Assembly (NCBI RefSeq): GCF_048403405.1
Contig: NZ_CP183129.1
Source: Escherichia coli
GTDB lineage: Bacteria; Pseudomonadota; Gammaproteobacteria; Enterobacterales; Enterobacteriaceae
Direction: 5' to 3' (one strand)
Length of the DNA stretch: 64,000 nt
The notes under the pieces are model-generated. The model made no database searches. It was not told the DNA's origin and saw only the letters and a list, made by a program, of their open reading frames with translations. Made by a program: the position numbers and the translations under genes. Within the stretch, counting starts at the first letter, position 1, and every line of letters begins with the position of its first letter. Shown here piece by piece: positions 37,906 through 58,826 of the stretch.

Positions 37906-37946
37906 TTAAAAAAAAGCCCGCAAAAGCGAGCCAGGGAAAATAAGTG

Positions 37947-38023
37947 TGGCGCGTTGTACTGGATTCGAACCAGTGACCGATTGCTTAGAAGGCAATTGCT
38001 CTGTCCGGCTGAGCTAACAACGC
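37947..38023 (-). tRNA. argO: tRNA-Arg (anticodon TCT)
   Basis: Clean cloverleaf read by hand: acceptor gcgttgt/acaacgc, D-stem gctc/gagc, anticodon loop cttctaa, T-loop ttcgaat, 3' CCA encoded. Confidence 0.85.
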
Positions 38024-39426: not shown

Positions 39427-39529
39427 GACTCACTCCTTAAAAAAGAATGCGCAAAATCAAACGCCACATCATCTATTGTCTGATATCTATCATCTTTATC
39501 CATCCTTGTGCACTTAGCTATGATAGGCT

Positions 39530-40186: not shown

Positions 40187-40260
40187 TAAGCTCACCGACC
40201 TAAATTGTAACAATATCCATATATTACAACTACAGATAAAAAGGTCCACAGAGTTAAGCA

Positions 40261-40290
40261 AAAAACCCGCACATTTGAGCGGGTTTATAC
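40261..40290 (-). terminator. tR'-like intrinsic terminator downstream of the late promoter
   Basis: On the late strand cccgctcaaatgtgcggg followed by TTTTTT. Confidence 0.65.
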
Positions 40291-40321
40291 ACTTTACAGC
40301 AATATATCACATTTACATAAA

Positions 40322-40350
40322 ATATATGCTATCTAATTGACTTTTGCAAT
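40322..40350 (-). promoter_or_regulatory. Late promoter pR'-like
   Basis: Late strand -35 TTGCAA, 17 bp spacer, -10 TATATT, about 50 nt upstream of the terminator, overlapping the Q-like gene 3' end. Confidence 0.55.
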
Positions 40351-41028: not shown

Positions 41029-41378
41029 TCCAGTTCTGTGATTTTTATCCCCAGCCGCCCACCAGGAACGAGCTGACCGCGCACAATATTGATTTCATCA
41101 AACTGCTCGTCGTCTATAAGTAGTCCGGCATGCGTCAGCGCATCCAGTGGTGCCTTCAGGATATTGTCCAGGTCGCGGCGGCGCTTATCCGGTGGCTCTG
41201 CAATCACCTTTATCGCCAGCCTTCCGGACAGGCTTAATTTCAGCCGCTGCTGGCGAACAATAAGCGCCACAGCCCGGCGATAACGCTTTCCCTCCTCCGA
41301 GATAAAATATGTGCTGCCACGGCGTCGCCAGTAAGTGTTCACCGTCGGCGGGTAAGGTAAAACCAAATCTATGAGCAT
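41019..41378 (-). CDS. rusA: Holliday junction resolvase RusA
   Basis: 119 aa; ...PPDKRRRDLDNILKAPLDALTHAGLLIDDEQ... RusA signature. Confidence 0.85.
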   Translation of the reverse strand: MLIDLVLPYPPTVNTYWRRRGSTYFISEEGKRYRRAVALIVRQQRLKLSLSGRLAIKVIAEPPDKRRRDLDNILKAPLDALTHAGLLIDDEQFDEINIVRGQLVPGGRLGIKITELECA

Positions 41379-41390
41379 CAGTCACCTCTT

Positions 41391-42437
41391 TTACCCAAGC
41401 ACGCCAGTTGCAAAGGCGTGATCAAGAAAACGAAAAATTAAATCAACCTGAGAACCATGCTTTTCTTCGAACGCCAGAGGATCCGCATGAAGCTCGTTGT
41501 GATGCTCCCGACACAGCGGTAGCGTGAAAATATCGTGAGATTTTGTCCCCATTCCGCCCTGACCATGACCAATCAGGTGATGGGGATCGTCGGCTGGCTT
41601 ACCACAACACGCACACGGCTGTGTCTTCACCCAGCGTGTGTATTTCTCGTTAACCCAGCGGCGACGTTTAGGTCGTTTCATGAAAGATTCCGGAGACTCA
41701 GGATCAACGGCAATGCTGACCACCGTCTCTTCCTGTGGCGGGTTTTGCTGGTGGGCGTGAGGCAGCGGCGCAAGATTTTTTGTGCGCTGCTTCAGTATGC
41801 TGGTGGCGGTCTGCTCTCCCGGTACGATGTCGCTTTCACGGTACATTGAGCGGATTTTTTCCGCACGCAACCCCAGCGAACGACGTAATACCGCTTCCGG
41901 TAGCGCGTCCGCCACCTGATTGCGGACCGCCCACCAGGATAATTCAGCCAGCGATAATTCCCGTTCCTGCGAGCCATTCATTGCATGGCGTATGACGTCA
42001 ATCATCCATGCAGACAGGTTTTGGTGAGCAAGTTGCCCGAGTGATTCGGAGGTCTGGTCGCGCAGCTGGTTGTCGCAGTGCCAGCACAACACCATTGCGC
42101 CGGTACCATAACGGTGAATGACGGTTTCACTGTGGTGATAATCGCCGTGTGGCCACTGGCAGGATTTAACATGGCGCAGTAACCAATCAGACAATGCGCC
42201 AGCGCCACCAGCAGCACGAATCACTCGTTCGTCGCTGAAAAATGGCAGTAATGATTTATCCTCCGCCAGCGGCTGGCGAACGGCAGGAACGACCCCGGAC
42301 GGCAGATTACGCATGCTTTTCGGTTCCGGCTCCACCAGTACCCGGGTATTGTGGAATACCGGCATGGATTCACGGCCCGGCTTAACGATCACCAGCCCGA
42401 GTTCCGGTACCAGAACAGGTCGAAGTAATACCCGCAC
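41391..42437 (-). CDS. DUF968/YdfU-like protein with C-terminal HNH-like zinc motif
   Basis: 348 aa; C-terminal CACCGKPADDPHHLIGHGQGGMGTKSHDIFTLPLCREHHNELH. Confidence 0.6.
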   Translation of the reverse strand: MRVLLRPVLVPELGLVIVKPGRESMPVFHNTRVLVEPEPKSMRNLPSGVVPAVRQPLAEDKSLLPFFSDERVIRAAGGAGALSDWLLRHVKSCQWPHGDYHHSETVIHRYGTGAMVLCWHCDNQLRDQTSESLGQLAHQNLSAWMIDVIRHAMNGSQERELSLAELSWWAVRNQVADALPEAVLRRSLGLRAEKIRSMYRESDIVPGEQTATSILKQRTKNLAPLPHAHQQNPPQEETVVSIAVDPESPESFMKRPKRRRWVNEKYTRWVKTQPCACCGKPADDPHHLIGHGQGGMGTKSHDIFTLPLCREHHNELHADPLAFEEKHGSQVDLIFRFLDHAFATGVLG

Positions 42438-42438
42438 G

Positions 42439-42723
42439 TTACCTCCAGATGCGTTGCTGGAATGTGCGGGACGGACGCGGTGGGCGTTCGGAATAAGGGA
42501 GTCTGACGTAGATTATCCAGTGACGATAATCGAGGGTGAGGGCTTTCCTAAACTCATATCCACGTCTGCGGTAGTTATGAATCAGCCATTCGGCCTGTTC
42601 TTCAGTACAGGGATCGTGCTGATACCAGTCATATTTGAATGCGTGAGAACGCCACCCGTGCCTGCTGGCAAAGGCAGAATCAGAATTGCGAAATTTGAAA
42701 TTATGCGCCATTGTCATCTCCAA
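42439..42723 (-). CDS. Hypothetical phage protein
   Basis: 94 aa ORF abutting the DUF968 gene. Confidence 0.4.
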   Translation of the reverse strand: MEMTMAHNFKFRNSDSAFASRHGWRSHAFKYDWYQHDPCTEEQAEWLIHNYRRRGYEFRKALTLDYRHWIIYVRLPYSERPPRPSRTFQQRIWR

Positions 42724-42770
42724 TGGCGCTGCAGGTTGCCAGTTGTTCAGGCTGGCTCACGTATTATAAC

Positions 42771-42992
42771 TTATTCCCGAACTACCTTGAAACCGAGTCT
42801 TTCCAAGTATTCAATGAATGCCTCAACAGATAACACTACATGATCATCAGGAATTAACGCTGTGTAGGTAATACCCCCATTCTCAACGCGCACAGCATAG
42901 AGGCCATCTTCACTAAAAATTTCACGTAATTCTTCGATTTTCATCAACAGAATCCTTCCAGATAAATAGCACTCCCCCTGTTCGGGGTCCAT
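42771..42992 (-). CDS. Hypothetical phage protein
   Basis: 73 aa ORF. Confidence 0.4.
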   Translation of the reverse strand: MDPEQGECYLSGRILLMKIEELREIFSEDGLYAVRVENGGITYTALIPDDHVVLSVEAFIEYLERLGFKVVRE

Positions 42993-43074
42993 CCCTCTTC
43001 TCCCTGCGCGCTACTTAAGTATTTTTGATTCTATTCTGGCACCGTCCAAAACTTCAAACACGTTGAAAATAAAA

Positions 43075-43096
43075 ACAAAAAACCCGCCGAAGCGGG
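43075..43096 (-). terminator. Intrinsic terminator after the XRE-peptidase gene
   Basis: Late strand cccgcttcggcggg followed by TTTTTTGTTTTT; same hairpin as at 44912-44936. Confidence 0.7.
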
Positions 43097-43101
43097 TATA
43101 C

Positions 43102-44208
43102 TCAAACAATCTGGAAAATATTTCTTGGATTTGTAATAGGTCTGTTGATGGAGAACAACTCACGAATTAAATCTTGGCTCAAGCCAGTTTTCATAAGAAT
43201 TCTTAGCCAGGTTGCATCATCCAGCATTTCAATCGCCTCGGCCAGCATGCCGGGTTCTTCAGGGCGCAAAAGTTCATCACCAGGTTCAACTCTCGTATAC
43301 CCTCTGGAATTAAGATGCATATAGCCAGTTCTTGCCTGTTCCTGGGTCAATAAGCCTAATGCGCTGGCTCGATAAATACACATTTTAAGGCTGATTTTCC
43401 ATCTAAGTTTAAATTCAACCAGAGCATTCCAGTCGAATTGCTTACCTCGTATTCGTGGAAATTCTTTAATGAAAGATAACCTGGGAACTAATAAGGCGCT
43501 CGAAAAGTGATCGGCTTGTGATTCCGTAAGTTTATCACCTGTCGTTATGCCCTCATGCATTACTAAATGCCCTAATTCATGACCTAAATCAGAGCGAAAT
43601 CTACATATGCTTTTTTTAACATTGTTCCTGATGATAACAGGCCTGTTATTGTGAACAGTAAAAGCATCAACACGATCATCGACTCCCGTAACATGCGCAA
43701 CGATTACCCCTAAACTCTCCGCCAATTTAACCATTGATGATATAGGGCCAAGACCTAAATTCCAGGCACGGCGACAATCTTCTGCCACTCGCTCAATATC
43801 ATTCGGAGTAAGTAATTCAGCCCCTGGGTGCTCCGGTATGTTAACGTCAGGAAATTCGATTTCACCTTCAACAGCAGAAATTATAATATTAAGAATCTCA
43901 GCCCTGGCCAATACACTATTAGTCAGCGTTTGAGTCCTGGACTTCTTACTCCGAAAATGGCAGACATCACTTTCCAGAGCGTATTTTCGTTCAGTAAAAA
44001 GAAAACTGGACTTAATCATAAGCGCTGAAGATATTAACTCAAGACATTGCTCCGATGGCCTGCACCCCTTCTCCAGTTTGCTAACGAATTGCTTTGTCTT
44101 GCCAATTTTTTCGGCTAACTCTTCACAAGAAAGCCCAACAGCCATTCTCGCTAGTTTGAGCTTATCACCCCGATACTCAGTGAAGTTATTCACCTGATGT
44201 TCCATCAC
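43102..44208 (-). CDS. XRE-family HTH regulator fused to ImmA/IrrE-type (COG2856) zinc metallopeptidase
   Basis: 368 aa; N-terminal HTH (LKLARMAVGLSCEELAEKIGKTKQFVSKLEKG), C-terminal HEXXH (HELGHLVMH); AT-rich. Confidence 0.75.
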   Translation of the reverse strand: MMEHQVNNFTEYRGDKLKLARMAVGLSCEELAEKIGKTKQFVSKLEKGCRPSEQCLELISSALMIKSSFLFTERKYALESDVCHFRSKKSRTQTLTNSVLARAEILNIIISAVEGEIEFPDVNIPEHPGAELLTPNDIERVAEDCRRAWNLGLGPISSMVKLAESLGVIVAHVTGVDDRVDAFTVHNNRPVIIRNNVKKSICRFRSDLGHELGHLVMHEGITTGDKLTESQADHFSSALLVPRLSFIKEFPRIRGKQFDWNALVEFKLRWKISLKMCIYRASALGLLTQEQARTGYMHLNSRGYTRVEPGDELLRPEEPGMLAEAIEMLDDATWLRILMKTGLSQDLIRELFSINRPITNPRNIFQIV

Positions 44209-44836
44209 TGCTCACATCCAAATCTTTATCCTTCGTACGCCGACGAAGAGGCACCTTATTAATCTCCGCTTCGTCAGGGAGTGTGTTATAATCAAGAGGC
44301 ATAAGCGGCATCGATGCTGTAGATTGATGAGAAACTATACTAATCTGAGCACCATAAGTATTAAATCCAACAAGAGCTACCTCCCAACGAGGCAGTGTGG
44401 ACTCTAATTCACCATCGCCCTCTTCGGATAAAAAAGGCTCAGCTATGACTCGCCATGTAATATCTTGCTCAGCCTCAACATCACCAAACAATGAGAGCTG
44501 CTCATACTCTACTTTATTTCGACGCAGACGATGTTTCTTTTTGGGGTTATTAATGCAATCTTTGGTAAATTGTAGCGGAACTTTATTTAAAGCAACTACA
44601 TAGTCCAACCCCTTGGAAATCATCTCAAGGCCAGGAATTGCATCTTCATTTTGAATAAGATGATTTCTGACCCAATCATAAGCCCTTACACCTTCAGACC
44701 AGTTGCTGTCTAATGCGTGCTTATGATAGTACAGCTGCTCAAGTACGTTAGCGATCTCCGCCAACAAGTGGCGAACATAGTTTTCAGCAAGATAAGGTTG
44801 AAATTCCCAACAAGGAGCTAACTGATTTTCATTCAT
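44186..44836 (-). CDS. Uncharacterized protein (216 aa), upstream partner of the XRE-peptidase gene
   Basis: ORF overlaps the downstream gene by 23 nt; TTGACA -35 element upstream; no recognisable motif. Confidence 0.55.
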   Translation of the reverse strand: MNENQLAPCWEFQPYLAENYVRHLLAEIANVLEQLYYHKHALDSNWSEGVRAYDWVRNHLIQNEDAIPGLEMISKGLDYVVALNKVPLQFTKDCINNPKKKHRLRRNKVEYEQLSLFGDVEAEQDITWRVIAEPFLSEEGDGELESTLPRWEVALVGFNTYGAQISIVSHQSTASMPLMPLDYNTLPDEAEINKVPLRRRTKDKDLDVSSDGTSGE

Positions 44837-44911
44837 TTCAAGTTTCGCTTTTTTTAGAATTCGTAAACCACATATTTTCGCATTTTTCTATTTTTGTCAA
44901 CCAGACTAATG

Positions 44912-44936
44912 CAAAAACCCGCCGAAGCGGGTTAAG
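44912..44936 (-). terminator. Intrinsic terminator after hok
   Basis: cccgcttcggcggg hairpin followed by T-run on the late strand. Confidence 0.7.
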
Positions 44937-45001
44937 TGCGGGTGCGTTGAGGATGCCTGGCACATCAGAGGTGGCGGGAGATTACTCCCCCGCCGGGTCT
45001 C

Positions 45002-45157
45002 TTACTCCTCAGGTTCGTAAGCTGTGAAGACAGCGACCTCCGTCTGGCCGGTTCGGATTCGTACCTCGCAGAGGTCTTTCCTCGTTACCAGTGCCGTCAC
45101 AATGACGGTTAAACAGATGACGATCAGGGCGATTAACATCGCCTTTTGCTGCTTCAT
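45002..45157 (-). CDS. hokD: Hok/Gef-family type I toxin (HokD/RelF-like, 51 aa)
   Basis: MKQQKAMLIALIVICLTVIVTALVTRKDLCEVRIRTGQTEVAVFTAYEPEE matches HokD; track ORF has an in-frame upstream extension. Confidence 0.85.
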   Translation of the reverse strand: MKQQKAMLIALIVICLTVIVTALVTRKDLCEVRIRTGQTEVAVFTAYEPEE

Positions 45158-45394
45158 AGCCTGCTTCCCCTTGCCTTTCGGCACGTAAGAGGCTAACCTA
45201 CATTTGTGAGACATAGATTGGGCCTCAGATTAATGTTAAGCGTCTTGCAGGACGCGAAATGTTAACTGGGGCTTTTCTCTATCTGCCTTTCAGTGTTCAT
45301 GCCTGAGACAGATAGCCTCAAGCACCCGCAGCCATTCTACTTAACTCACGTCACCTCGCCAATATGAAATCAATCAGAAAGGTGATCCATAAAA

Positions 45395-46081
45395 TCACTC
45401 CTTCTCTTCTTTTCCGTAGTGGAGTTGGCCAATTTTGATAAGAGGGCGTCCCTGAGATTTGCGGTGTAGATTGGTATCGCGCAGAGAATACACACAGCCA
45501 CAATATTCCTGCTGATAGAATTTTTCGCGCTTGCTGATTTCAATCATACGGGACGAGCCGCCCTGCTTGCGCCAGTTATAATCCCAGTACACCATACCCG
45601 GATAATGCGCAACAGCTCGCCGCCCACACTCGTTAACCTGCTGCATATTTTTCCAGCGTGAAATGCCCAGTGAACTGCTGATCACACTGAAACCATTTTC
45701 AGCAGCGTACAACGCTGTCCGCTCAAAACGCATGTCAAAACACATGGTACAACGGATCCCCCTCTCAGGCTCCCATTCCATTCCTTTGGCACGTTCAAAC
45801 CAGTTGTCGGTGTCGTAATCAGCATCGATAAACGGCACGCCGTGTTGTTCAGCAAAGCGAATATTTTCATCCTTACGAATTAAATACTCTTTCTGAGGAT
45901 GAATGTTCGGGTTGTAGAAAAAGATGGTGTAGTCGATTCCCGAGGCCTGAAGCGCCTCCATCACTTCACCGGAACATGGAGCACAGCAAGAGTGCAGTAG
46001 TAGTTTGTTTGCCCCGTTTGGGAGCTCCAATTTAGGCCGTTTGAAATCAGCAATAGTCATAAATATTTTTATTGGGGTCAT
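45395..46081 (-). CDS. QueH-like (DUF208) putative epoxyqueuosine reductase
   Basis: Conserved Cys motifs [12 protein letters not shown] and YCGCVYS; start ambiguous (M at 46081 or 46060); family call from memory. Confidence 0.55.
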
Positions 46082-46135
46082 GAAAATAGCACAGAGTGTA
46101 GCATCAGAGTGTACTGACCCCAAAAAGTTGGACAG

Positions 46136-46987
46136 TTAAACACGAGGCATATAGGTCTGATTCCGATATTCAATTGGAGTCAGACCTTTTAATTTCAGGC
46201 TAATTCTTCTGCTGTTGTAGTATTCAATATATTCCGTAACAGCATCCTTCAGTTCGCTTATATTACTGAACTCATCAAGATAAAAACACTCCGACTTTAA
46301 GGTTCCAAAGAAACACTCCACCACAGCATTATCCAGACAATTGCCTTTTCTGGACATGCTTTGTTTAATACCATGTTCTTTAAGGATATTTTGATATCTT
46401 CTCATACGATACTGCCATCCCTGGTCAGAGTGCAGAACAGGATGCTCGTGAGGATTAAGCTTTTTGAATGCCTGATCGAGCATATTCTCAACCATGTTCA
46501 TCACTGGTCTTTCCGAAAGGCTGTAAGAAATAACTTCGTTGTTGAAGAGATCTATTACTGGAGACAAATACAGCTTGCGCCCATTGACTGCAAATTCAGT
46601 AACATCGGTAACCCACTTCTCGTTTGGCCGCGTAGCCTTGAAATCTCTTTGGAGAACATTAGGGGCGGTTTGCCCTACCTCTCCTCTGTAAGAGCGGTAT
46701 CGCTTGACCTTAATCGCTGCTTTAAGTGAGAGGGTTCCCATCAGGCGCTGAACAGCTTTATGGTTAATCTGTTTCCCTTCTCGATGAAGAGACAGCGTTA
46801 CCCTACGGTATCCGTATCGGCCTCTATTCTCGTGATAAATCTCACTAATACGCTTTTTAACGTCCGCATACTTGTCAGGCTTGCTGAGAGCCTTTAGATG
46901 ATAATAAAACGTACTGCGCGGTATCTCCGCAGCCCTGAGAAGCTCATCAAGAGGATAAAACTGCCTTAGCTCGTTGAGTACTTTCAC
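46136..46987 (-). CDS. insK: IS150 transposase OrfB (DDE domain)
   Basis: 283 aa; ...[48 protein letters not shown]... Confidence 0.9.
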
Positions 46988-47505
46988 TTTTTCGTGGGAT
47001 GAGCTAAGGCTTTCAGCTTTTTTAGATACATAAGCCGCGTTTCAAGAAATCGAACTTGCCTTTCAAGATCCTCAATGCGTCGGTCTTTTGACAGCTCCAA
47101 TGCTGATGCCGCTTTTTCTGGATCAACTGATATTGCAATGTTTCTTTTGGTGCCAATCTTGAGCGCGCGTAAACCAGCTTCTCCGCGCTCTTCATAGACC
47201 TTCAGCCACCTGGCTACAGAACCACTACCAGCAAGCATAAAGTGAGCAGCAGCCTGATTAAGGGACATGTGCTGCTCGATCACAGCTTTCACGACCTTAA
47301 TACGCAACTCTGGATCAGCACTAACGCCTTTAGGTTTGGGAATTAAACCTTTTTCTCCATGTTTTTCATAGAGGGCAACCCATGTCCTGACCTGGGTTCG
47401 GGGGACACCAAAACGTGCCGAGATGATCCTGTAACCATCATCAGTTGTGAAGTAGTGATTCACGACTTCAAGGCGCTTTTCAAAAGGGTATTTTGGCTTT
47501 GACAT
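46984..47505 (-). CDS. insJ: IS150 transposase OrfA (HTH)
   Basis: 173 aa MSKPKYPFEKRLEVVNHYFTTDDGYRIISARFGVPRTQVRTWVALYEKHG...; 4 nt overlap with orfB. Confidence 0.9.
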   Translation of the reverse strand: MSKPKYPFEKRLEVVNHYFTTDDGYRIISARFGVPRTQVRTWVALYEKHGEKGLIPKPKGVSADPELRIKVVKAVIEQHMSLNQAAAHFMLAGSGSVARWLKVYEERGEAGLRALKIGTKRNIAISVDPEKAASALELSKDRRIEDLERQVRFLETRLMYLKKLKALAHPTKK

Positions 47506-47680
47506 ATTAGGGGCTATTCCATTTCATCGTCCAACAAAATGGGTGCAGTACAGAGCAGGGCTATCGGGAATATATGTCTAAATCTGGTAATATCTGGTTT
47601 TGACGCAAAGCGGACAACCACGCTGGCTCTACCCTGCGCCATGAAAATGTCAATTCACATCTGAACTAATGCTCTTTAAT

Positions 47681-50491: not shown

Positions 50492-50917
50492 TCAATGCAC
50501 AGCCACAATATTTCCTGCAGGGCCACCACGATTCATCTGGTTGAAACCAGCGATCGCCACTGCGACAAAATCATCAGCGTCTCTCACCAGTCGTTCCCGC
50601 GTCTCCACCAGCTCCCGAAAATAAGCTGAACTGTGGCTGCGCATTCGGGCCACCAGCAGAGGCGGCATTGCTTTTTCGATCGCTGGTAACAACGCCTGAA
50701 TTTTTTTAACCGCATCAGGAGTGTCTTTCTCCACCCAGCGGAAAATTTTCTGGGTATTGCGAGCCAGGGCTTCCGGATGGCTGTCGTCATATAATTCCGG
50801 GAACGTCATACCAAGCTCAAAATAAGCCCGGGTTATTTCAGCTGCCGGAACTTTTTCACCGTCCGGATGCGCCCAGGCATTCATCGCCATGCGGATGTGC
50901 TCATGCCTGATTTTCAT
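50492..50917 (-). CDS. YdaT-like (CII-position) regulatory protein
   Basis: 141 aa ORF directly downstream of the cro-like gene. Confidence 0.5.
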   Translation of the reverse strand: MKIRHEHIRMAMNAWAHPDGEKVPAAEITRAYFELGMTFPELYDDSHPEALARNTQKIFRWVEKDTPDAVKKIQALLPAIEKAMPPLLVARMRSHSSAYFRELVETRERLVRDADDFVAVAIAGFNQMNRGGPAGNIVAVH

Positions 50918-51182
50918 GAATCAACTCCGATGCATTTGGTGTGTTAGCCTTGAATCCAACAGGTAAGCCGTCGGTTGGATTCGGGTAAATATCAGGCCGG
51001 AGTTCATGAGGTGTAACCTCGAAATTCGTTACTTCAGCAACACGTAATGCTTTTTCAGGGCTGAATCTTTCATAGCCCCCCAGCACTCGACTTACATGCA
51101 CCTGAGATAAACCCGTTAGCTTCCCAAACTGTAGCTGGGTGATATGTTTCTCTTTTAAATAGTCTCTTAAGTTCATAGCCAA
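50901..51182 (-). CDS. Cro-like HTH protein (YdaS/DicC position)
   Basis: 93 aa, divergent from the repressor gene; HTH QLQFGKLTGLSQVHVSRVLGG. Confidence 0.6.
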   Translation of the reverse strand: MAMNLRDYLKEKHITQLQFGKLTGLSQVHVSRVLGGYERFSPEKALRVAEVTNFEVTPHELRPDIYPNPTDGLPVGFKANTPNASELIHENQA

Positions 51183-51283: not shown

Positions 51284-51745
51284 ATGAAAAAAACACGCGA
51301 AGTGATTGCAACTCCAGAAGCGAGCAAGAATTTAAAAGCCGCATGGAATGCAAGAAAAAAAGAGCTGAAGCTGACTCAAGAGCTGGCGGCTGAGTTGTTG
51401 GGATTCGAATCTCAAGGCACCGTTAGCCAGTATCTGAACGGCAAGATACCGGTAAATACCGACGCTGCGCTAAAATTTGCGGCTCTGTTAAAGGTAAAAC
51501 CAGAGGACATTCGAGAAGACCTTAAAGACTTAATGAATTATGTAAGATCATCAGATACTTATGATGATAACTTTTCAGGCAAAGGATGGAGGCTGGTCAA
51601 TGAAGAACAGGCAGAGTTACTTAACCTCTTCGAGATTCTACCTGCGTCAGAAAAAGCCAAACTCCTTAACCAGCTACGTGGACTAAACAAGCTCTACGAG
51701 GAAGCCTTCGAGAACATGCTGGCACTAAAGAAACGTAACCAGTAG
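51284..51745 (+). CDS. Prophage repressor (DicA/RacR-like XRE-family)
   Basis: 153 aa, divergent from cro-like; HTH LTQELAAELLGFESQGTVSQYLNG; C-terminal ELLNLFEILPASEKAKLLNQL resembles DicA. Confidence 0.7.
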   Translation: MKKTREVIATPEASKNLKAAWNARKKELKLTQELAAELLGFESQGTVSQYLNGKIPVNTDAALKFAALLKVKPEDIREDLKDLMNYVRSSDTYDDNFSGKGWRLVNEEQAELLNLFEILPASEKAKLLNQLRGLNKLYEEAFENMLALKKRNQ

Positions 51746-51772
51746 CCACCGCTCACTACCCCATCCACAACA

Positions 51773-51805
51773 AAAAAACCGACGTCTTAGTCGGTTTTTT
51801 TGTGC
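51773..51805. terminator. Intrinsic terminator after the repressor gene
   Basis: aaaaaaaccgacgtcttagtcggttttttt. Confidence 0.7.
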
Positions 51806-51898
51806 CATAACTTCTGCAAATCAGCTGTATAACTAATATTTTTCCCTTGAAAAAACATTTACATAGTTACCAAATCAAAAATATCATACGCCATACTG

Positions 51899-51927
51899 TT
51901 GACTTAAAATATCCGCGTTACTAATAT
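51899..51927 (+). promoter_or_regulatory. Early-left promoter (pL-position)
   Basis: -35 TTGACT, 17 bp spacer, -10 TAATAT upstream of ydfA. Confidence 0.5.
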
Positions 51928-51998
51928 TTCTATCAAGAACAGCACGGCGCTGTAGGTTTTAGTTCCGCCACCCGGCGTTAAGGGGAAATGAGGTCAGC

Positions 51999-52154
51999 AT
52001 GGATACTATCGAGCTTGGCAACAACGAATCTCTGGTGTACGGCGTGTTTCCCAACCAGGACGGCACATTCACCGCGATGACGTATACCAAAAGCAAAACG
52101 TTTAAAACCGAAAATGGTGCCCGTCGCTGGCTGGAAAGAAACTCAGGTGAGTGA
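51999..52154 (+). CDS. ydfA: YdfA-like small protein (51 aa)
   Basis: MDTIELGNNESLVYGVFPNQDGTFTAMTYTKSKTFKTENGARRWLERNSGE; GAGG RBS. Confidence 0.65.
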   Translation: MDTIELGNNESLVYGVFPNQDGTFTAMTYTKSKTFKTENGARRWLERNSGE

Positions 52155-52155
52155 T

Positions 52156-52284
52156 ATGGATTTCGACACAATCATGGAAAAGGCTTACGAAGAATACTTC
52201 GATGGTCTTGCCGAAGGCGAAGAAGCTCTCAGCTTCAGTGAATTTAAACAGGCGCTTTCCAGTTCGGGAAAATCTAACGGCTGA
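52156..52284 (+). CDS. ydfB: YdfB-like small protein (42 aa)
   Basis: MDFDTIMEKAYEEYFDGLAEGEEALSFSEFKQALSSSGKSNG; the 69 aa track ORF 52151..52360 in another frame is judged spurious. Confidence 0.55.
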   Translation: MDFDTIMEKAYEEYFDGLAEGEEALSFSEFKQALSSSGKSNG

Positions 52285-52313
52285 TAAGCGAAACAGCACC
52301 GCGAGGAATCAGT

Positions 52314-52532
52314 ATGCAGAAACGAGAACCCGTCATCATCGCGCCAGACTATACCGATGATGAACTTTATGAGTGGATGCGCCAGAAAATTAATGCAGTG
52401 CAGGATCTGAAATGGGCCAATGAAGCCAGGACTAAGCAGGCTGAAAATCTGTCCGCTCTGGAGCAGGATATCACCAGGCTGGAAAAAGCAGCGGCATTAA
52501 GCATTGCCAGAATGGTTACATACCCACGTTAA
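52314..52532 (+). CDS. ydfC: YdfC-like protein (72 aa)
   Basis: MQKREPVIIAPDYTDDELYEWMRQKINAVQDLKWANEARTKQAENLSALEQDITRLEKAAALSIARMVTYPR. Confidence 0.6.
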   Translation: MQKREPVIIAPDYTDDELYEWMRQKINAVQDLKWANEARTKQAENLSALEQDITRLEKAAALSIARMVTYPR

Positions 52533-52554
52533 TAGCTAACCAACGAGGCTAATA

Positions 52555-52956
52555 ATGGAATTTAAAGATTTACCAATGCCATTCCAGGAAATGGCAGCGA
52601 ATGTGGTTCGCTCTCAACTGGCGACTCTTGACCTGAGTACTGTAGAAAAGGAAACCATCGATACTATATCCGGTAACGTGCGTCGTGCCTTTATAGGTCT
52701 GTATGAAGAGAAGCGCCTATTCGGCGGACAGAATTCGCCTGAAAACAAGAATCAAGCAAATGATGAGAAGCTGAAACACATTATCGCCTTACTTTTGGAA
52801 GACGCAAAACGTCTACAGCAACTGGAACCAAATGCAGGCACAGAGGCCCGCATTTGGATTGCCATGAAATCACTCAAATGTGAAAGCAGTGATTATTTCA
52901 AAACAACAATTAAAACTACTCAACTTTCGGGAGAGCTACTGAAGAAATTGCCATAA
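52555..52956 (+). CDS. Hypothetical protein (133 aa) in the early-left operon
   Basis: ORF track; between ydfC-like and dicF. Confidence 0.45.
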   Translation: MEFKDLPMPFQEMAANVVRSQLATLDLSTVEKETIDTISGNVRRAFIGLYEEKRLFGGQNSPENKNQANDEKLKHIIALLLEDAKRLQQLEPNAGTEARIWIAMKSLKCESSDYFKTTIKTTQLSGELLKKLP

Positions 52957-53194
52957 GAGCATGGTCTTTCTCTTGTTCTGCAAGATGAGCATTAATACCT
53001 GGTATGGTTTTTTCAAATTTATCTATCTGTTGAATAACAACTTCGCGGTATACGTTTGTTTTTGTACCACCAAGCGCAGCCGTTAATGCAGAAAGCATAT
53101 TTAGTATCATATCAGTGCGATATGAAAGAATCCTGATAGCTTCATCTTGTTCTTCAATAATAGATTGCAGGGCCTCAATTTGCTTTTTATCCAT
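52916..53194 (-). CDS. Counter-oriented hypothetical coiled-coil protein (92 aa)
   Basis: MDKKQIEALQSIIEEQDEAIRILSYRTDMILNM... with perfect AGGAGG RBS; convergent with 52555..52956. Confidence 0.5.
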   Translation of the reverse strand: MDKKQIEALQSIIEEQDEAIRILSYRTDMILNMLSALTAALGGTKTNVYREVVIQQIDKFEKTIPGINAHLAEQEKDHALMAISSVALPKVE

Positions 53195-53529
53195 TTCACC
53201 CTCCTGAGGGTTGGTAATTAAGGAGTTCTCCACTGGTCAGGTGGAGTGCGTGCGCCGGACACGGGTGAGCATCCGGCACTGACAGTTTACTGAAAGGATA
53301 TGTCCCTGAAAAGTCAGGGCATAACGCGAAAGCGCACGGCGAAATTGGTCTCTCTGTACGGTGTCGTTAAATTTAGTTCGACCGTGCGCTTCCGGTTGTG
53401 GCACTCCGCGAAATGGCGCGGCGGTAAGTATGGCTGGGGTTTCCTCCATTGCTCCAGAAAATGCACCGGGTTGTCAGGTTGACCATACGCTTAAGTGACA
53501 ACCCCGCTACAACGCCCTCTGTTATCAAT

Positions 53530-53587
53530 TTTCTGGTGACATTTGGCGGTATCAGTTTTACTCCGTGACTGCTCTGCCGCCCTTTTT
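53530..53587 (+). ncRNA. dicF: DicF small RNA (cell-division inhibitor sRNA)
   Basis: tttctggtgacatttggcggtatcagttttactccgtgactgctctgccgccc + T-run matches the remembered DicF sequence; lies upstream of dicB. Confidence 0.7.
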
Positions 53588-53765
53588 AAAGTGAATTTTG
53601 TGATGCGGTGAATGCGGCTATGCGCACGCGGAACAGTTAAAGCAGTAAGGCGGTATTTTACGGGCGTAACGAGCATCAACTAACCCGGCGTTAATTGTTA
53701 ACTGGTTAACGTCACCTGGAGGCACCAGGCACTGCATCACAAAATTCATTGTTGAGGACGCGATA

Positions 53766-53954
53766 ATGGAAACGTTATTACCAAACGTTAATACGTCTGA
53801 AGGTTGTTTTGAAATTGGTGTCACTATCAGTAACCCTGTATTTACTGAAGATGCCATTAACAAGAGAAAACACGAACGGGAGTTATTAAATAAAATATGC
53901 ATTCTTTCAATGCTGGCCCGTTTACGTCCGATACAAAAAGGATGTGCACAATGA
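53766..53954 (+). CDS. dicB: Cell division inhibitor DicB
   Basis: 62 aa METLLPNVNTSEGCFEIGVTISNPVFTEDAINKRKHERELLNKICILSMLARLRPIQKGCAQ. Confidence 0.85.
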   Translation: METLLPNVNTSEGCFEIGVTISNPVFTEDAINKRKHERELLNKICILSMLARLRPIQKGCAQ

Positions 53955-54142
53955 ATACAGCATTTGCACTTGTTCTGACAGTTTTTCTTGTTTCCGGAGA
54001 GCCAGTTGATATTGCAGTCAGTGTTCACAGGACAATGCAGGAGTGTGTGACTGCAGCAACCGAACAGAAAATTCCCGGTAACTGTTACCCGGTCGATAAA
54101 GTTATTCACCAGGATAATAACGAAATCCCGGCAGGTCTTTAA
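53950..54142 (+). CDS. ydfD: YdfD-like small protein with signal-peptide-like N-terminus
   Basis: MNTAFALVLTVFLVSGEPVDIAVSVHRTMQECVTAATEQKIPGNCYPVDKVIHQDNNEIPAGL; ATGA overlap with dicB. Confidence 0.65.
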
Positions 54143-54234
54143 AACAGTTCCGTAATAAATATCCGGTTTCATTCTTATATGCCAGCAATGGCAGGGATTT
54201 GTTCACCCTTAAATCTGTAATGAGGTAAAACAAA

Positions 54235-56706
54235 ATGAGTAAAGTCTTTATTTGCGCCGCCATTCCGGACGAACAGGCAATAAAGGAAGAAGGTGCAGTC
54301 GCTGTAGCCACTGCCATTGAAGCCGGTGATGAACGTCGCGCCCGCGCAAAATTTCACTGGCAATTCCTGGAACATTATCCGGCTGCTCAGGACTGCGCTT
54401 ATAAATTTCTTGTCTGCGAGGATAAACCCGGTATACCCCGCCCTGCCCTAGATTCCTGGGATGCTGAATATATGCAGGAAAACCGCTGGGATGAGGCGTC
54501 TGCTTCCTTTGTCCCGGTTGAGACTGAATCAGATCCGATGAACGTCACTTTTGACAAGCTGGCCCCTGAAGTACAGAACGCTGTCATGGTTAAGTTCGAC
54601 ACATGTGAAAACATCACCGTTGATATGGTGATTAGCGCGCAGGAACTGTTGCAGGAAGACATGGCAACATTCGACGGACATATCGTTGAAGCGTTGATGA
54701 AAATGCCAGAAGTTAACGCCATGTATCCGGAGCTTAAGCTGCATGCCATCGGGTGGGTTAAGCATAAATGTAAGCCTGGTGCCAAATGGCCCGAAATTCA
54801 GGCAGAGATGCGCATCTGGAAAAAACGTCGCGAAGGTGAACGCAAGGAAGCCGGAAAATACACGTCTGTTGTTGATCTCGCCCGCGCCAGAGCCAATCAA
54901 CAGCACACTGAAAATTCAACAGGAAAAATCAACCCGGTCATTGCTGCCATTCATCGCGAATACAAGCAGACATGGAAAACACTGGATGACGAACTGGCCT
55001 ACGCTCTCTGGCCTGGTGATGTGGATGCCGGAAACATTGACGGCAGCATCCATCGCTGGGCAAAAAATGAAGTTATCGACAACGACCGCGAAGACTGGAA
55101 GCGTATCTCGGCATCAATGCGCAAACAGCCTGATGCCCTTCGCTACGACCGCCAGACTATTTTTGGCCTTGTCCGTGAACGTCCGATCGACATTCACAAA
55201 GACCCTGTGGCACTGAACAAATACATTACTGAATACCTGACTACAAAGGGCGTGTTTGAAGATGAAGGAACAAATCAGAGCGCAACTGATACTCTCTCGT
55301 CGCCAGTACCAGAAACTGATGCAGTGGAAACGGCAATTCCGGACAACGAAAAAACCGAATGCAAAGTGGAAGTCGAACCATCTGTAGAACGTGAGGGGCC
55401 GTTCTACTTCCTCTTCACCGACAAGGATGGCGAAAAATACGGTCGCGCAAACAAACTTTCTGGTCTGGATAAGGCGCTGTCTGCTGGGGCTACTGAAATC
55501 ACGAAAGAAGAATATTTCGCCCGCAAAAACGGTACATACTCAGGTTCACAACAAAATACTGGTGCATCTGACACGACCGCACAACCAGGGTCAGTAAAAG
55601 TTACCGCTGACGAAGTAAACAAAATTATGCAGGCAGCCAATATCAGCCAGCCTGACGCCGATGAACTGCTTGCAGTATCACGTGGTGAATTTGTTGAAGG
55701 GATTAGCGACCCGAATGATCCGAAATGGGTTAAGGGGAACCAGACCCGCGATTCTGTGAACCAGAACCAGCAAGAAACGGAACAGAACGACCAGAAAGCG
55801 GAACAAAACAGCCCAAATGCGTTACAAAACGAGCCAGAAACGAAACAGCCTGAATCAGTGGCGCAACAGGAAGTGGAAAAAGTCTGCACCGCCTGCGGTC
55901 AGACCGGCGGCGGCAACTGCCCTGATTGTGGCGCGGTAATGGGCGACGCAACATACCAGGAAACATTCGATGAAGAGTATCAGCCTGAAGTTCAGGAAGA
56001 TGATCCGGAGGAAATGGAAGGCGCTGAACATCCACACAAGGAGAACACTGGCGGCAATCAGCATCACGATAGCGATAATGAAACTGGCGAGACGGCAGAT
56101 CACTCAATTAAGGTGAACGGTCATCAAGAAATCACATCCACCAGCAGGACGTGTGACCATCTAATGATCGACCTTGAAACCATGGGAAAAAATCCTGATG
56201 CCCCGATCATCTCAATAGGTGCAATATTTTTCGATCCGCAAACCGGAGATATGGGACCGGAATTTAGTAAGACTATCGATCTGGAAACTGCTGGCGGAGT
56301 CATTGATCGGGACACCATTAAATGGTGGCTTAAGCAATCACGCGAAGCGCAATCTGCCATTATGACCGATGAAATCCCGTTAGATGATGCACTGTTACAA
56401 TTGCGGGAATTTATCGACGAAAACTCCGGTGAATTTTTTGTTCAGGTTTGGGGAAATGGAGCCAACTTCGACAACACGATTTTGCGCCGTTCATACGAAC
56501 GGCAGGGGATCCCCTGCCCGTGGCGTTACTACAACGATCGCGATGTACGCACAATCGTTGAGCTGGGGAAAGCCATAGACTTCGATGCCAGAACGGCTAT
56601 TCCATTCGAAGGTGAGCGCCATAATGCACTTGATGACGCCCGTTACCAGGCAAAATACGTTTCAGCTATCTGGCAAAACCTGATCCCAAATCAGGCTGAT
56701 TTTTAA
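54235..56706 (+). CDS. Large early-region exonuclease-like protein (central zinc ribbon, C-terminal DnaQ-like 3'-5' exonuclease domain)
   Basis: 823 aa; CxxC...CxxC (CTACGQTGGGNCPDCG); C-terminal DEDDh motifs MIDLETMG, NGANFD, HNALDDARYQA. Confidence 0.65.
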   Translation: MSKVFICAAIPDEQAIKEEGAVAVATAIEAGDERRARAKFHWQFLEHYPAAQDCAYKFLVCEDKPGIPRPALDSWDAEYMQENRWDEASASFVPVETESDPMNVTFDKLAPEVQNAVMVKFDTCENITVDMVISAQELLQEDMATFDGHIVEALMKMPEVNAMYPELKLHAIGWVKHKCKPGAKWPEIQAEMRIWKKRREGERKEAGKYTSVVDLARARANQQHTENSTGKINPVIAAIHREYKQTWKTLDDELAYALWPGDVDAGNIDGSIHRWAKNEVIDNDREDWKRISASMRKQPDALRYDRQTIFGLVRERPIDIHKDPVALNKYITEYLTTKGVFEDEGTNQSATDTLSSPVPETDAVETAIPDNEKTECKVEVEPSVEREGPFYFLFTDKDGEKYGRANKLSGLDKALSAGATEITKEEYFARKNGTYSGSQQNTGASDTTAQPGSVKVTADEVNKIMQAANISQPDADELLAVSRGEFVEGISDPNDPKWVKGNQTRDSVNQNQQETEQNDQKAEQNSPNALQNEPETKQPESVAQQEVEKVCTACGQTGGGNCPDCGAVMGDATYQETFDEEYQPEVQEDDPEEMEGAEHPHKENTGGNQHHDSDNETGETADHSIKVNGHQEITSTSRTCDHLMIDLETMGKNPDAPIISIGAIFFDPQTGDMGPEFSKTIDLETAGGVIDRDTIKWWLKQSREAQSAIMTDEIPLDDALLQLREFIDENSGEFFVQVWGNGANFDNTILRRSYERQGIPCPWRYYNDRDVRTIVELGKAIDFDARTAIPFEGERHNALDDARYQAKYVSAIWQNLIPNQADF

Positions 56707-56770: not shown

Positions 56771-57019
56771 ATGGCAAGACTTATTCTGCTCACTGAGTGG
56801 GCAAAAGAGGAATTCAGTGAACCGGTCCCTACTCCGAGTACGTTAAGTAAATACGCTAAAGCCGGAATGATATTTCCTCTCCCCAAAAAAGTTGGAAGAC
56901 GCTGGCGAGTGGATCCGCAAGCTCGCTTTGTCGGAATGGTAAACAAGCCGGAGGTGATCGCCACAGATCACCCTGCTTTGAAGAGGATACTGGAAGATGG
57001 CGCGCCCGCGAAAATATAA
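56771..57019 (+). CDS. xis: Excisionase (Xis-like)
   Basis: 82 aa, overlaps the int start; ...GMIFPLPKKVGRRWRVD... lambda Xis-like. Confidence 0.7.
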   Translation: MARLILLTEWAKEEFSEPVPTPSTLSKYAKAGMIFPLPKKVGRRWRVDPQARFVGMVNKPEVIATDHPALKRILEDGAPAKI

Positions 57020-58127
57020 AACCGATGTTCCGGGATTATCTCCGTATTTTGACAAAAGAAATAACAAAGTTTACTGGCGTTACAGGCATCCCATAACAGG
57101 CAAAAATCACGGTCTCGGCAGTATTGACCAGAAACTGGCAGAAACTATTGCAGCAGAAGCGAACAGCCGTCTTGCCCGGCAGCAAATGGAACAAATGCTC
57201 AGTCTGCAGGAGAAAATTATTAGTGATACCGGCGGTTCATCAACCGTTACCATTTTTCTGAATAATTACAGAAAAATTCAACAGGAAAGATATGAAAACG
57301 GCGAGATCAAACTCAACACGCTGAAACAGAAAGCGGCCCCTCTCAGGGTATTTGATGAACGTTTTGGCACCAGACCGTTAGATGCCATAACCGTAAAAGA
57401 TGTGGTATCAGTACTGGAAGAGTACAAGGCCAGAGGACATAACAGAATGGGACAAATTTTCAGGAAAGTACTGATCGATGTTTTCCGGGAAGCTCAGCAA
57501 ACGGGCGATGTCCCGCCAGGCTTTAACCCTGCAGAATCGGCAAAAAAACCGCAGGTGCGGATATCAAGACAGCGACTGACTTTTGATGAGTGGATGATGA
57601 TTTATAACGCAGCGGAAAAGAATGGTTACTTTTTACAGCGCGGTATGCTGCTGGCACTGATGACAGGCCAGCGCCTTTCAGATATTTGCAAAATGCAATT
57701 TTCGGATATCCGGGATGGTTATCTTCATGTCGAACAGCAAAAAACAGGAACCCGGATTGCCATCCCTCTGGCTCTGCGTTGCGATAAATTAAATCTCACC
57801 CTGGATGATGTAGTGTCATCCTGCCGCGATTGCGTTCTTAGTCCGTGGCTATTGCACCACCATCACGCGAAAGGGACAGCTAAGCGCGGCGGGATGGTTA
57901 AGCCAGCAACATTAACCGTTGCATTTAAAAAAGCCCGGGATTCTGTGGATTACAACTGGCGTGCTAATGGCACCCCACCCTCTTTCCATGAGCAGAGATC
58001 TTTATCAGAGCGATTGTTCAGAGAGCAGGGGGTTGATACCAAAATTTTGCTAGGCCATTCGAATCAAAAAATGACCGATATTTACAACGATGTACGCGGT
58101 AAGGAGTGGAAAAAACTGGTCATTTGA
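56997..58127 (+). CDS. int: Tyrosine site-specific integrase
   Basis: 376 aa; C-terminal catalytic region with R...HxxR...Y (FHEQRSLSERL, LLGHSNQKMTDIY); next to att. Confidence 0.9.
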   Translation: MARPRKYKTDVPGLSPYFDKRNNKVYWRYRHPITGKNHGLGSIDQKLAETIAAEANSRLARQQMEQMLSLQEKIISDTGGSSTVTIFLNNYRKIQQERYENGEIKLNTLKQKAAPLRVFDERFGTRPLDAITVKDVVSVLEEYKARGHNRMGQIFRKVLIDVFREAQQTGDVPPGFNPAESAKKPQVRISRQRLTFDEWMMIYNAAEKNGYFLQRGMLLALMTGQRLSDICKMQFSDIRDGYLHVEQQKTGTRIAIPLALRCDKLNLTLDDVVSSCRDCVLSPWLLHHHHAKGTAKRGGMVKPATLTVAFKKARDSVDYNWRANGTPPSFHEQRSLSERLFREQGVDTKILLGHSNQKMTDIYNDVRGKEWKKLVI

Positions 58128-58172
58128 TGACCAGTTTTGCAGAAGAGTTTTGCAGAGGTTTTGCAGAGAAAA

Positions 58173-58826
58173 TTAAAAACGATATCCTGCCGAGAACATA
58201 AACACCCACGGGTCAAGGCGTACATTGTCGCTATAACTGCCTTTAGCCAGTTTACGACCATCAGATTTATACTTCGCGGTGGTATCGATATCCATGTACC
58301 AGACTGACATGTTAACCAACCAGTCACGGTTAATCAGATAATCAACCCCCACCTGCCCGGCAGCTCCCCAGGAATCTTTCAGACTGAGATCGGAAAGCCC
58401 CGCCTCTTTGCCATGATCGTTAAATCCATTATCAAAGAAGGTGGTGTAGTTAATACCTGCCCCAACGTAAGGACGGAATTTGCTGCTGGCATCACCAAAA
58501 TACCACTGCGCCATCAGTGTTGGCGGCAGATGATGAACGGTTGCAATATCGCCGGTCGCCCGGGTGCCGATTTTATGGCGGAACGGCGTCGCTGCCAGCA
58601 ATTCCACACCAATGTTATCGGTCGCCATATAAGTAAACGTCAGGCCCAGTTGCGTGTTATTGGTCACGCTGAATCCACCCAGACTTCCTAACGTACCACC
58701 AGCACCTTCTGTTGGACGTACGGTTGCAGACCCTGCACGCATAAAAAATTCGCCTGCTTCATGCGCATAGGCACTGCCAGAGAGAAGAGTTGTTACTGCC
58801 AAAGCCGCCACTGTTAACTTTTTCAT
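58173..58826 (-). CDS. ompW: Outer membrane protein OmpW with phage-supplied variant C-terminal segment
   Basis: 217 aa; N-terminal 183 aa canonical OmpW; C-terminal ...TTAKYKSDGRKLAKGSYSDNVRLDPWVFMFSAGYRF differs from the chromosomal remnant at the left junction (...TTANYKLGGAQQHDSVRLDPW...). Confidence 0.9.
   Translation of the reverse strand: MKKLTVAALAVTTLLSGSAYAHEAGEFFMRAGSATVRPTEGAGGTLGSLGGFSVTNNTQLGLTFTYMATDNIGVELLAATPFRHKIGTRATGDIATVHHLPPTLMAQWYFGDASSKFRPYVGAGINYTTFFDNGFNDHGKEAGLSDLSLKDSWGAAGQVGVDYLINRDWLVNMSVWYMDIDTTAKYKSDGRKLAKGSYSDNVRLDPWVFMFSAGYRF
58277..58301. repeat. attR core region (shared with 5954-5978)
   Basis: cggtggtatcgatatccatgtacca repeated at both prophage ends. Confidence 0.6.

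Follow-up and report, generated by a model that had tools for sequence, protein, structure and literature searches.

The segment at 53530-54142 of the window (by which we mean the whole 64,000-nucleotide stretch of Escherichia coli DNA analyzed here) runs exactly from the 5' end of a DicF small RNA to the stop codon of ydfD, and it raises the questions of whether this is the DicF/DicB division-inhibition locus known from the Qin prophage of K-12, what element carries it, and whether it would operate here as it does in K-12. Our evidence is the sequence identity, family membership, RNA structure and conservation, and prophage context observed in this DNA. We propose, with a probability of about 0.93, that a ~52-kb lambdoid prophage occupies the 3' end of ompW, that the locus forms its early-left operon, and that this operon follows a K-12-like DicF/DicB scheme.

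Genes and small RNA of the operon

K-12 MG1655 served as the comparison genome for Qin, and the features of the operon that have K-12 counterparts are as follows.

51999..52154, + strand: ydfA, 50/51 aa identical to K-12, DUF1391 match
52156..52284, + strand: ydfB, 40/42 aa identical to K-12
52314..52532, + strand: ydfC, 68/72 aa identical to K-12
53530..53582, + strand: DicF sRNA, RF00039 match, with an unpaired 5' seed ahead of a terminator hairpin and U-run
53766..53954, + strand: dicB, 62 aa, division inhibitor by profile matches and K-12 identity
53951..54142, + strand: ydfD, 63 aa, DUF1482 (PF07358, 88 bits), 59/63 aa identical to K-12
54235..56706, + strand: exonuclease gene (full-length ydfE), 823 aa, PF16473 at residues 642-813, PHROG 2082 over the full length

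The initial annotation had recognized DicF, dicB and ydfD with ydfABC upstream, and all of these are present, the module proteins being 90-98% identical to those of K-12 Qin. The Rfam model for DicF, RF00039, matches 53531-53582 (+) over its full length (1-52/52) at 77.0 bits (gathering score 48; E 2.9e-15), and this is the only DicF match in the whole window. Alignment to K-12 Qin dicF/dicB identifies the sRNA region as DicF with a match far beyond chance: 52 of 53 nt are the same, the sole change is G12A, and nt 13-53 are unchanged. DicB is matched over all of its residues (1-62/62) by PF05358 (129.2 bits, cut-off 27) and by NF049927 (130.6 bits, cut-off 100), and it shares 56 of 62 residues with the K-12 protein, three of the six substitutions falling within the last nine residues. 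The DicB, DUF1482 and DUF1391 profile matches all lie above their curated cut-offs, and the K-12 homologue of ydfD is annotated as a lysis protein. At the DNA level the similarity to K-12 Qin comes in two blocks, 51961-52552 at 96.3% and 53209-55001 at 92.7%. The second block ends at the start of IS2E, where the K-12 ydfE, which is the same exonuclease gene, is cut by IS2; the window therefore retains the full 823-aa exonuclease, with its C-terminal 3'-5' exoribonuclease domain (PF16473), followed by xis and int.

The one substitution in DicF lies in the part of the molecule that, in K-12, pairs with xylR and pykA mRNAs, the 3' region being the one that pairs with ftsZ (PMC5069750). The 3' part that pairs with ftsZ and manX falls within nt 13-53 and is identical to that of K-12, and RNAduplex gives -33.9 kcal/mol with manX for both alleles, while the full-length ftsZ duplex is slightly weaker for the window DicF (-38.7 against -40.8 kcal/mol for K-12). 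The effect of G12A on xylR is larger in the same calculation, since it places a C·A mismatch in a 13-bp duplex and changes the energy from -20.3 (K-12) to -14.5 kcal/mol; the target set of this DicF may therefore differ from that of K-12. The xylR/pykA seed is thus not K-12-identical, and seed identity is not what defines the family. The hairpin at 53545-53581 is followed by UUUUU and folds at -15.9 kcal/mol (z -2.67), as expected of a terminator or Hfq-type 3' end. Among 3959 matching records, 122 have the exact 61-nt DicF allele, and about the same number (121-123) carry the rest of the operon region. A lineage with this seed variant, with its predicted weaker xylR pairing, may be of interest to those who work on DicF and DicB.

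The combination of genes had been put forward as a useful mosaic for studying DicB and DicF. The combination is real and at the same time commonplace. A 3-kb operon query matches 4759 of 5426 complete E. coli genomes at a median of two places per genome, and the DicF stretch alone matches 3949 of the 5426, with up to five copies each, which puts the module in 73-88% of complete genomes. It is also found in phages: 63 phage records match the operon, including cultured phages with an annotated DicF, and the same module is carried by cultured temperate phages such as Tritos, mEp460_ev081, HannyBb and PhiR42_1. As of 2016, neither DicF nor DicB had been found in a phage genome (PMC5069750). With the module this widespread in genomes and cultured phages, the highlighted combination is ordinary. 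In the near-identical prophages of ~120 strains, NCBI PGAP annotates dicB, ydfC and ydfB and leaves dicF unannotated. The dicBF locus itself is already known, common and textbook material, and its presence here matters little; the practical value of the analysis lies in correcting the identity of the prophage.

Repressor and promoter region

The description of the locus as Qin-type stands for the ydfABC-dicF-dicB-ydfD-ydfE module. It does not extend to the region that would control the module, which contains the following features.

50492..50917: YdaT-like gene after the YdaS-like gene, ~32% identical to Rac YdaT
50901..51182, - strand: Cro-like YdaS-family HTH protein, divergent from the repressor, Pfam YdaS_toxin/HTH_3, ~32% identical to Rac YdaS
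51284..51745, + strand: prophage repressor, 153 aa, Pfam HTH_3 only, no peptidase S24 domain
51770..51803: perfect 14-bp inverted repeat with A/T runs at its flanks, found by repeat search and sequence inspection
51858..51927, + strand: candidate early-left promoter(s), the dicBp/pL equivalent, with sigma-70-like sites

The repressor shares 37 of 157 positions (24%) with K-12 DicA and scores 35 bits against the NCBIfam DicA subfamily, for which the cut-off is 101; we therefore reject its identification as DicA. No match to RacR was obtained by BLASTP with the repressor and no match to DicC was found in the window. A Rac-type immunity, which the 95% identity of phage Rac-SA53 at the repressor region might suggest, was rejected as well, given the lack of a RacR match and the ~32% identity of the YdaS- and YdaT-like proteins. 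From its domain content we regard the repressor as DicA-like in architecture and of a different predicted specificity. The inverted repeat is likely a bidirectional terminator after the repressor gene. Beyond it, TTTACA-18-TATCAT (10/12) and TTGACT-17-TAATAT are candidate promoter sites, and we infer from them that 51858-51927 holds the early-left promoter(s). Homology to K-12 starts at 51961, only 38 nt ahead of ydfA, and the promoter stretch is not homologous to dicBp; the promoter and operators are therefore of a different immunity type, and it is by extrapolation that we assign their control to the local repressor.

That the prophage is Qin is rejected on the repressor (37/157 against DicA), the missing DicC match, the integration in ompW, and the alignment of only 6.5 of the 20.5 kb of the Qin backbone, in 10 patches.

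An insertion between ydfC and dicF

The two blocks of K-12 similarity are separated by DNA with two further genes on opposite strands.

52553..53208: insertion relative to K-12, 656 bp, defined by the break in the K-12 alignment
52555..52956, + strand (operon strand): orf133, 133 aa, PHROG 1363 (E 3e-45), a function-unknown family
52916..53194, - strand: orf92, convergent, 92 aa, strong Shine-Dalgarno, PHROG 18692 (E 1e-62), a function-unknown family

Neither orf133 nor orf92 has a Pfam, NCBIfam, PADLOC or PDB-sequence match, and the idea that they form a defence or toxin-antitoxin system is accordingly unsupported. Of 5426 complete E. coli genomes, 123 have the full 656-bp insertion and ~895 have its first ~160 bp, which marks the site as a variable slot. 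The convergent orf92 and the 656 extra bp inside the operon could interfere with transcription reaching dicF, and two uncharacterized genes in the operon, one of them antisense, may interest DicF/DicB workers for that reason.

The insertion also brings up the reading that the operon is a silent relic, in which DicF/DicB output is stopped by the convergent gene, by the foreign promoter region or by tight repression, and no phenotype results. The antisense gene with its strong Shine-Dalgarno fits such a relic, as does the strong repression of the K-12 operon in laboratory conditions (PMC10448788). K-12 DicA has no domain for RecA-dependent cleavage, its repression being lifted by the antirepressor Rem (PMC10448788), and the Rem-like antirepressor gene of the window is down to its first 26 codons. 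Against this, every ORF in the operon is intact, conservation of the RNA processing determinants stands at 92-96%, the insertion-bearing operon is almost unchanged in ~120 genomes, and K-12 cells build up DicF in stationary phase even though the operon is repressed (PMC10448788). We consider a silent relic unlikely and continue with an operon that would be expressed in a K-12-like manner.

The prophage and its state

The element, ~52 kb in length, is a lambdoid prophage that has its own immunity and resides in ompW. The prophage of strain MSB1_7C, which is 99.7-100% identical and well annotated, was used as the reference relative, and the features that define the ends and one of the lesions are as follows.

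5863..5983: attL, displaced chromosomal ompW 3' copy, from direct repeats
~46110-47550: IS3-family element, 1.44 kb, TGTACTG ends, GAG target duplication, absent from the MSB1_7C relative
56771..57019, + strand: xis (excisionase), annotated in the 99.8% identical relative and in the ORF list
56997..58127, + strand: int (integrase), annotated in the 99.8% identical relative and in the ORF list
58171..58306: attR side, phage-borne 3' end of ompW, from direct repeats and a partial ompW annotation in the relative

The att direct repeats pair 5863-5915 with 58171-58223 at 96% and 5944-5983 with 58267-58306 at 92.5%. The structural genes follow the order nu1-A-W-B-C-D-E-FI-FII-Z-U-V-G-T-H-M-L-K-I-J-lom-stf-tfa, which is that of lambda. 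Searches by tblastn with lambda proteins other than T gave colinear matches across 31374-7631, FI being the one with no match; FI and T are both annotated in the near-identical relative MSB1_7C. The statement that the morphogenetic genes are nearly lambda-identical has to be withdrawn, since the similarity is one of gene order alone: protein identity to lambda is 51-68% for the head genes, 68-83% for the tail genes and 94% for Tfa, and mean DNA identity is 75% over the 18.7 kb structural module. The closest phages for the structural genes are ECOR-derived lambdoids at 93-95%. The lom gene, a pseudogene in the relative MSB1_7C, is intact in the window.

The late region had been called Stx-phage-like, and its layout bears this out. 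It comprises, in order, Q, a Ser/Thr kinase, a PP2C phosphatase, a methylase remnant, three tRNAs, two STnc100 RNAs, a SASA/NanS-p-type esterase, holin, lysozyme and Rz, and its best phage matches, at 85-90%, are Stx1a/Stx2a-converting phages together with PPompW/PPyecE prophages. The stx slot at 36972-37950, which follows the tRNA cluster and precedes the NanS-p esterase gene, is occupied by the two STnc100 RNAs (Rfam matches) and holds no ORF of at least 90 aa and no stx gene.

Whether such an element is near-intact, as had been suggested, bears on what the operon is for. If this were an intact, inducible temperate phage, dicBF would act mainly in the lytic cycle as a transient division block, like lambda Kil, and would not be a domesticated host function. 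Much of the element has the appearance of such a phage: the full ~52 kb is present with both att sites, int, xis, replication genes, Q, lysis genes and a complete structural module in lambda order, and the same dicBF module occurs in the cultured phages named above. From 5980 to 40649 the window differs from MSB1_7C by one substitution and two indels, whereas 96 sites differ in the left host flank (1-5979), and this contrast suggests that the prophage was recently mobile. The lesions point the other way. In tail gene K, at 16647, a 10-bp deletion relative to MSB1_7C destroys the frame after residue 179 of 247, and its size makes a sequencing artefact unlikely. In the head protease gene C, at 26879, a 1-bp frameshift (C7 to C6 in a homopolymer, relative to MSB1_7C) ends the frame after residue 93 of 501; if real, it truncates the protease, although it could be a homopolymer sequencing error, as similar 1-bp indels occur in the host gene yciF. 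The IS3-family element, in turn, lies in the early-right operon, with the replication genes on one side and Q on the other. We regard an intact phage as improbable, somewhat more so than a silent relic, and favor a K-12-like operon in a prophage that, judged by these lesions, is full-length yet probably defective and unlikely to produce particles. The corrected identity is thus an ompW-integrated lambdoid with its own immunity rather than Qin, lambda-like in gene order only and probably particle-deficient.

Leader and spacer RNA

Two non-coding stretches flank DicF in the operon transcript.

53209..53529, + strand: DicF precursor leader, 320 nt, non-coding, within the 92.7% K-12 alignment, fold z -3.35
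53583..53765, + strand: dicF-dicB spacer RNA, 183 nt, multi-stem, STnc100/PasD family, closing helix ~28 bp

In K-12, RNase E produces the 53-nt DicF and RNase III a 190-nt species; the two share a 3' end, and RNase III cuts 137 nt upstream of where the 53-nt form begins (PMC10448788). The equivalent of that site in the window is contained in a leader helix of ~53326-53345 with 53383-53398. The sequence determinants for making the 53-nt DicF by termination and RNase E / RNase III processing are conserved. A 72-nt DicF also exists, its 3' end being made by RNase III on read-through RNA, as a review relates from Faubladier et al. (PMC9438474). Nucleotide 72 corresponds to window position 53601 and lies inside the predicted helix 53583-53610, and in the folded model a paired RNase III cut would fall near 53739, ~27 nt before the dicB AUG. 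Two papers that map RNase III cleavage mention dicBF in their main text only in passing.

The spacer has a minimum free energy of -64.7 kcal/mol (z -3.9; the K-12 spacer has z -4.75), and the 5' strand of its closing helix begins in the terminator U-run. Against STnc100 (RF02076) it scores 31.1 bits, which is under the gathering score of 47, with an E-value of 3.4e-5 in a 351-nt search; the same element scores 39.4 bits in the tRNA array of a 97-kb plasmid and 35.5 bits beside a DicF copy in Aeromonas phage AP1. RNAalifold on 59 sequences gave 19 pairs, 8 with double changes, and recovered the closing helix, hairpin 1 and the terminal hairpin, all three of which the window spacer retains. A scan of viral contigs for the terminal hairpin motif CCNGG/CCNGG returned 135 matches with only G..C (123) or T..A (12), and the pairs beside GGUG/CACC are kept in 87-89 of 94 unique copies, compared with at most 8 when shifted by one position. 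On sequence and modelled structure, we assign the dicF-dicB spacer to the STnc100/PasD RNA family. Two other identities were rejected: a P1 C4-like antisense RNA, with no Rfam match even at E 10, and a put-like antiterminator, which would sit downstream of the terminator that it needs to suppress. A main role of the long helix in masking the dicB Shine-Dalgarno was downgraded in favor of an RNase III substrate because the pairing between the U-run and UUGAGGA is weak (3 G·U) and the corresponding Shine-Dalgarno in Rac is unpaired. An STnc100/PasD spacer common to dicF-dicB and Rac kilS-kilR offers a structural explanation, open to testing, for the RNase III processing that was described in 1990.

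Copies of the spacer type have exchangeable flanks, with DicF, a DicF-like variant or a tRNA upstream, and dicB, kilR or another gene downstream. We entertain, at somewhat less than even odds, the broader view that DicF is not a stand-alone gene but opens a mobile RNA cassette made of two parts, an sRNA with its terminator followed by an STnc100/PasD leader. In such a cassette the extended closing helix would serve as the entry site for RNase III, would split the sRNA from the toxic gene and would set the 5' end of the mRNA; the same unit would precede dicB (Qin type), kilR (Rac) and other genes, and the leader alone would occur in phage tRNA arrays. If this is true, KilS is a paralogue of DicF, and prophage division inhibitors have a common, exchangeable RNA control module. 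Within the literature that could be searched, DicF goes unmentioned in the paper on KilS, as do both DicF and dicB in the preprint on PasD/STnc100. This relationship might be the sole new part of the analysis, and it concerns the RNA family rather than this window.

A proposed mechanism for the operon

Combining these data, we put forward a scheme that, for expression, processing and phenotypes in this strain, draws on the K-12 literature or extrapolates from it. The repressor, of DicA architecture and with no self-cleavage domain, would silence the promoter just 3' of its own gene. Derepression would give one transcript covering ydfA-ydfB-ydfC, the two accessory ORFs, the DicF precursor, dicB, ydfD, the 3'-5' exonuclease gene, xis and int. 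The majority of transcripts would end at the DicF hairpin and U-run, and RNase E would trim the 5' end to yield the 53-nt DicF, whose K-12-identical 3' half is predicted to pair with ftsZ and manX mRNAs and block their translation. In read-through RNA, the 183-nt spacer would fold into its multi-stem structure closed by the ~28-bp helix, and RNase III, which in K-12 frees the 72-nt DicF, would cut in this helix and leave dicB on an mRNA whose leader is short and free. DicB would then act as in K-12, recruiting MinC so that FtsZ rings are blocked and interfering with ManYZ so that some phages are excluded, and YdfD would act as a lysis protein. The MinC-dependent division block and the ManYZ inhibition, through which DicB protects against phage, are known for K-12 DicB only (10.1101/708461).

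Comparison with known systems

The lambda pL operon (N ... kil-gam-bet-exo-xis-int) resembles the present operon in its early-left position downstream of the repressor gene, in carrying a small division inhibitor and in ending with xis-int, and the structural genes from nu1 to tfa are in the same order. Unlike lambda, the window has no homologue of N, kil, gam, bet or exo, its repressor has no S24 cleavage domain, and its structural proteins are only 51-83% identical. The PPompW-type lambdoid prophages of STEC and other E. coli share the integration in ompW, the presence of ydfC and dicB, and ~90% DNA identity over portions of the early and Q regions; they differ in that coverage of the queried stretches is only 22-35%, and in that the match to the accessory gene after ydfC is confined to its first ~150 bp, at 82%.

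The kilS-kilR locus of Rac in K-12 is alike in its RNA organization. KilS is an annotated sRNA that matches RF00039 at 39 bits and has the same terminator base, it is followed by an STnc100-like spacer with a long closing helix (28 bits, z -4.36) that aligns with the dicF-dicB spacer, and the gene for an FtsZ-directed division inhibitor comes after the spacer. It is unlike the present locus in its sRNA seed and loop, in a cargo, KilR, that is unrelated to DicB, and in a Shine-Dalgarno that lies outside the helix.

The closest known system is the K-12 Qin dicBF operon, with which the window shares the gene order ydfABC-dicF-dicB-ydfD-ydfE, a DicF identical at 52 of 53 nt and proteins identical at 90-98%. 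Conservation extends to the precursor leader, the terminator and the spacer RNA, and the same RNase E and RNase III sites are therefore expected as in K-12. The window differs from K-12 Qin in a repressor that is 24% identical to DicA, in another promoter, with no homology upstream of 51961, and in the two extra genes (656 bp) between ydfC and dicF. Its DicF carries G12A in the xylR/pykA seed, its exonuclease is full-length where K-12 ydfE is cut by IS2, its int and xis are intact, and its prophage resides in ompW rather than at the Qin site.

The dicF-dicB spacer RNA and its relatives

The stretch between dicF and dicB belongs, with the support of sequence covariation, to the STnc100/PasD family of structured RNAs. 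Copies of the spacer type give Rfam scores of 28-39 bits, which are sub-threshold, and it is the covariation that supports their membership in the family. The spacer is closed by a helix of ~28 bp, and the site at which RNase III is known to generate the 72-nt DicF lies within this helix. The same leader as that between dicF and dicB is carried by the kilS-kilR interval of K-12 Rac and by phage tRNA arrays, and the spacer-type copies are as follows:

window 53583-53765, the dicF-dicB spacer RNA of this prophage
L009 (K-12 Rac locus) 8223-8409, minus strand, spacer-type copy
L010 (a further locus bearing the element) 1448-1568, spacer-type copy
L011 (Aeromonas phage AP1 locus) 2561-2765, spacer-type copy

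The Aeromonas phage copy belongs to a longer segment:

L011 2512-2765 (MT713136.1, ~249.9-250.2 kb), a DicF copy together with the spacer and the opening codons of dicB

This segment is almost identical to K-12 Qin, and we consider it to be either a recent transfer or an artefact of assembly or contamination. The AP1 record is T4-like, and the segment is located in its tRNA region.

Variation within the operon

The DicF of this prophage carries a G12A substitution (nt 12 of DicF, window 53541) in its 5' seed, which places a mismatch mid-way in the 13-bp duplex with xylR and changes the predicted energy from -20.3 to -14.5 kcal/mol. Only 122 of the 3959 matching E. coli records have exactly this allele. 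The operon also contains an insertion that K-12 is without:

window 52553-53208, insertion of 656 bp

It encodes an ORF of 133 aa and, convergent to it, one of 92 aa with a strong Shine-Dalgarno sequence, and neither has an assigned function. Its first ~160 bp are common to about 895 genomes with differing 3' parts, which suggests that the site is a variable slot for accessory genes.

State and possible spread of the prophage

Relative to the 99.7% identical prophage of strain MSB1_7C, tail gene K has a 10-bp deletion (window 16647) and head protease gene C a C7 to C6 frameshift (window 26879), and particle formation by this prophage is probably no longer possible. The change in gene C may, nevertheless, be a sequencing error. 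The host gene yciF differs from that of MSB1_7C by two 1-bp deletions (window 4781 and 5109) that leave no intact ORF. Either yciF is a host pseudogene or the deletions point to indel errors in the assembly. Two further features of the prophage are:

window ~46110-47550, 1.44-kb IS3-family insertion sequence whose terminal repeats are TGTACTG and whose 3-bp target duplication is GAG
window 42870-42947, minus strand, remnant of a Rem-like antirepressor gene, first 26 codons only

The DUF977 and queH-like genes of the early-right operon flank the IS3-family element, which is absent from the closest relative. The Rem-like remnant is 73% identical to K-12 Rem and is annotated as a partial pseudogene in the relative. 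Compared with MSB1_7C, the left host flank (window 1-5979) has 96 differing sites in 5.9 kb, while prophage positions 5980-40649 show one substitution and two indels and window 39000-46109 is identical. A near-identical prophage beside a divergent host flank is consistent with recent horizontal spread between lineages.

Comparison with known systems

An annotated sRNA of K-12 Rac resembles DicF:

L009 8411-8466, minus strand, kilS

KilS matches the DicF model RF00039 at 39 bits and looks like a DicF paralogue from its sequence, the two having the terminator base and the downstream leader in common, whereas the seed and loop differ. DicF is absent from the text of the paper naming KilS. Full STnc100 copies are present in the late region:

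window 37194-37403, minus strand, STnc100 sRNA, 165 bits
window 37681-37871, minus strand, STnc100 sRNA, 136 bits

Three phage tRNAs lie on one side of this pair and the SASA/NanS-p esterase gene on the other, and the pair fills the slot that in Stx phages is occupied by stxAB.
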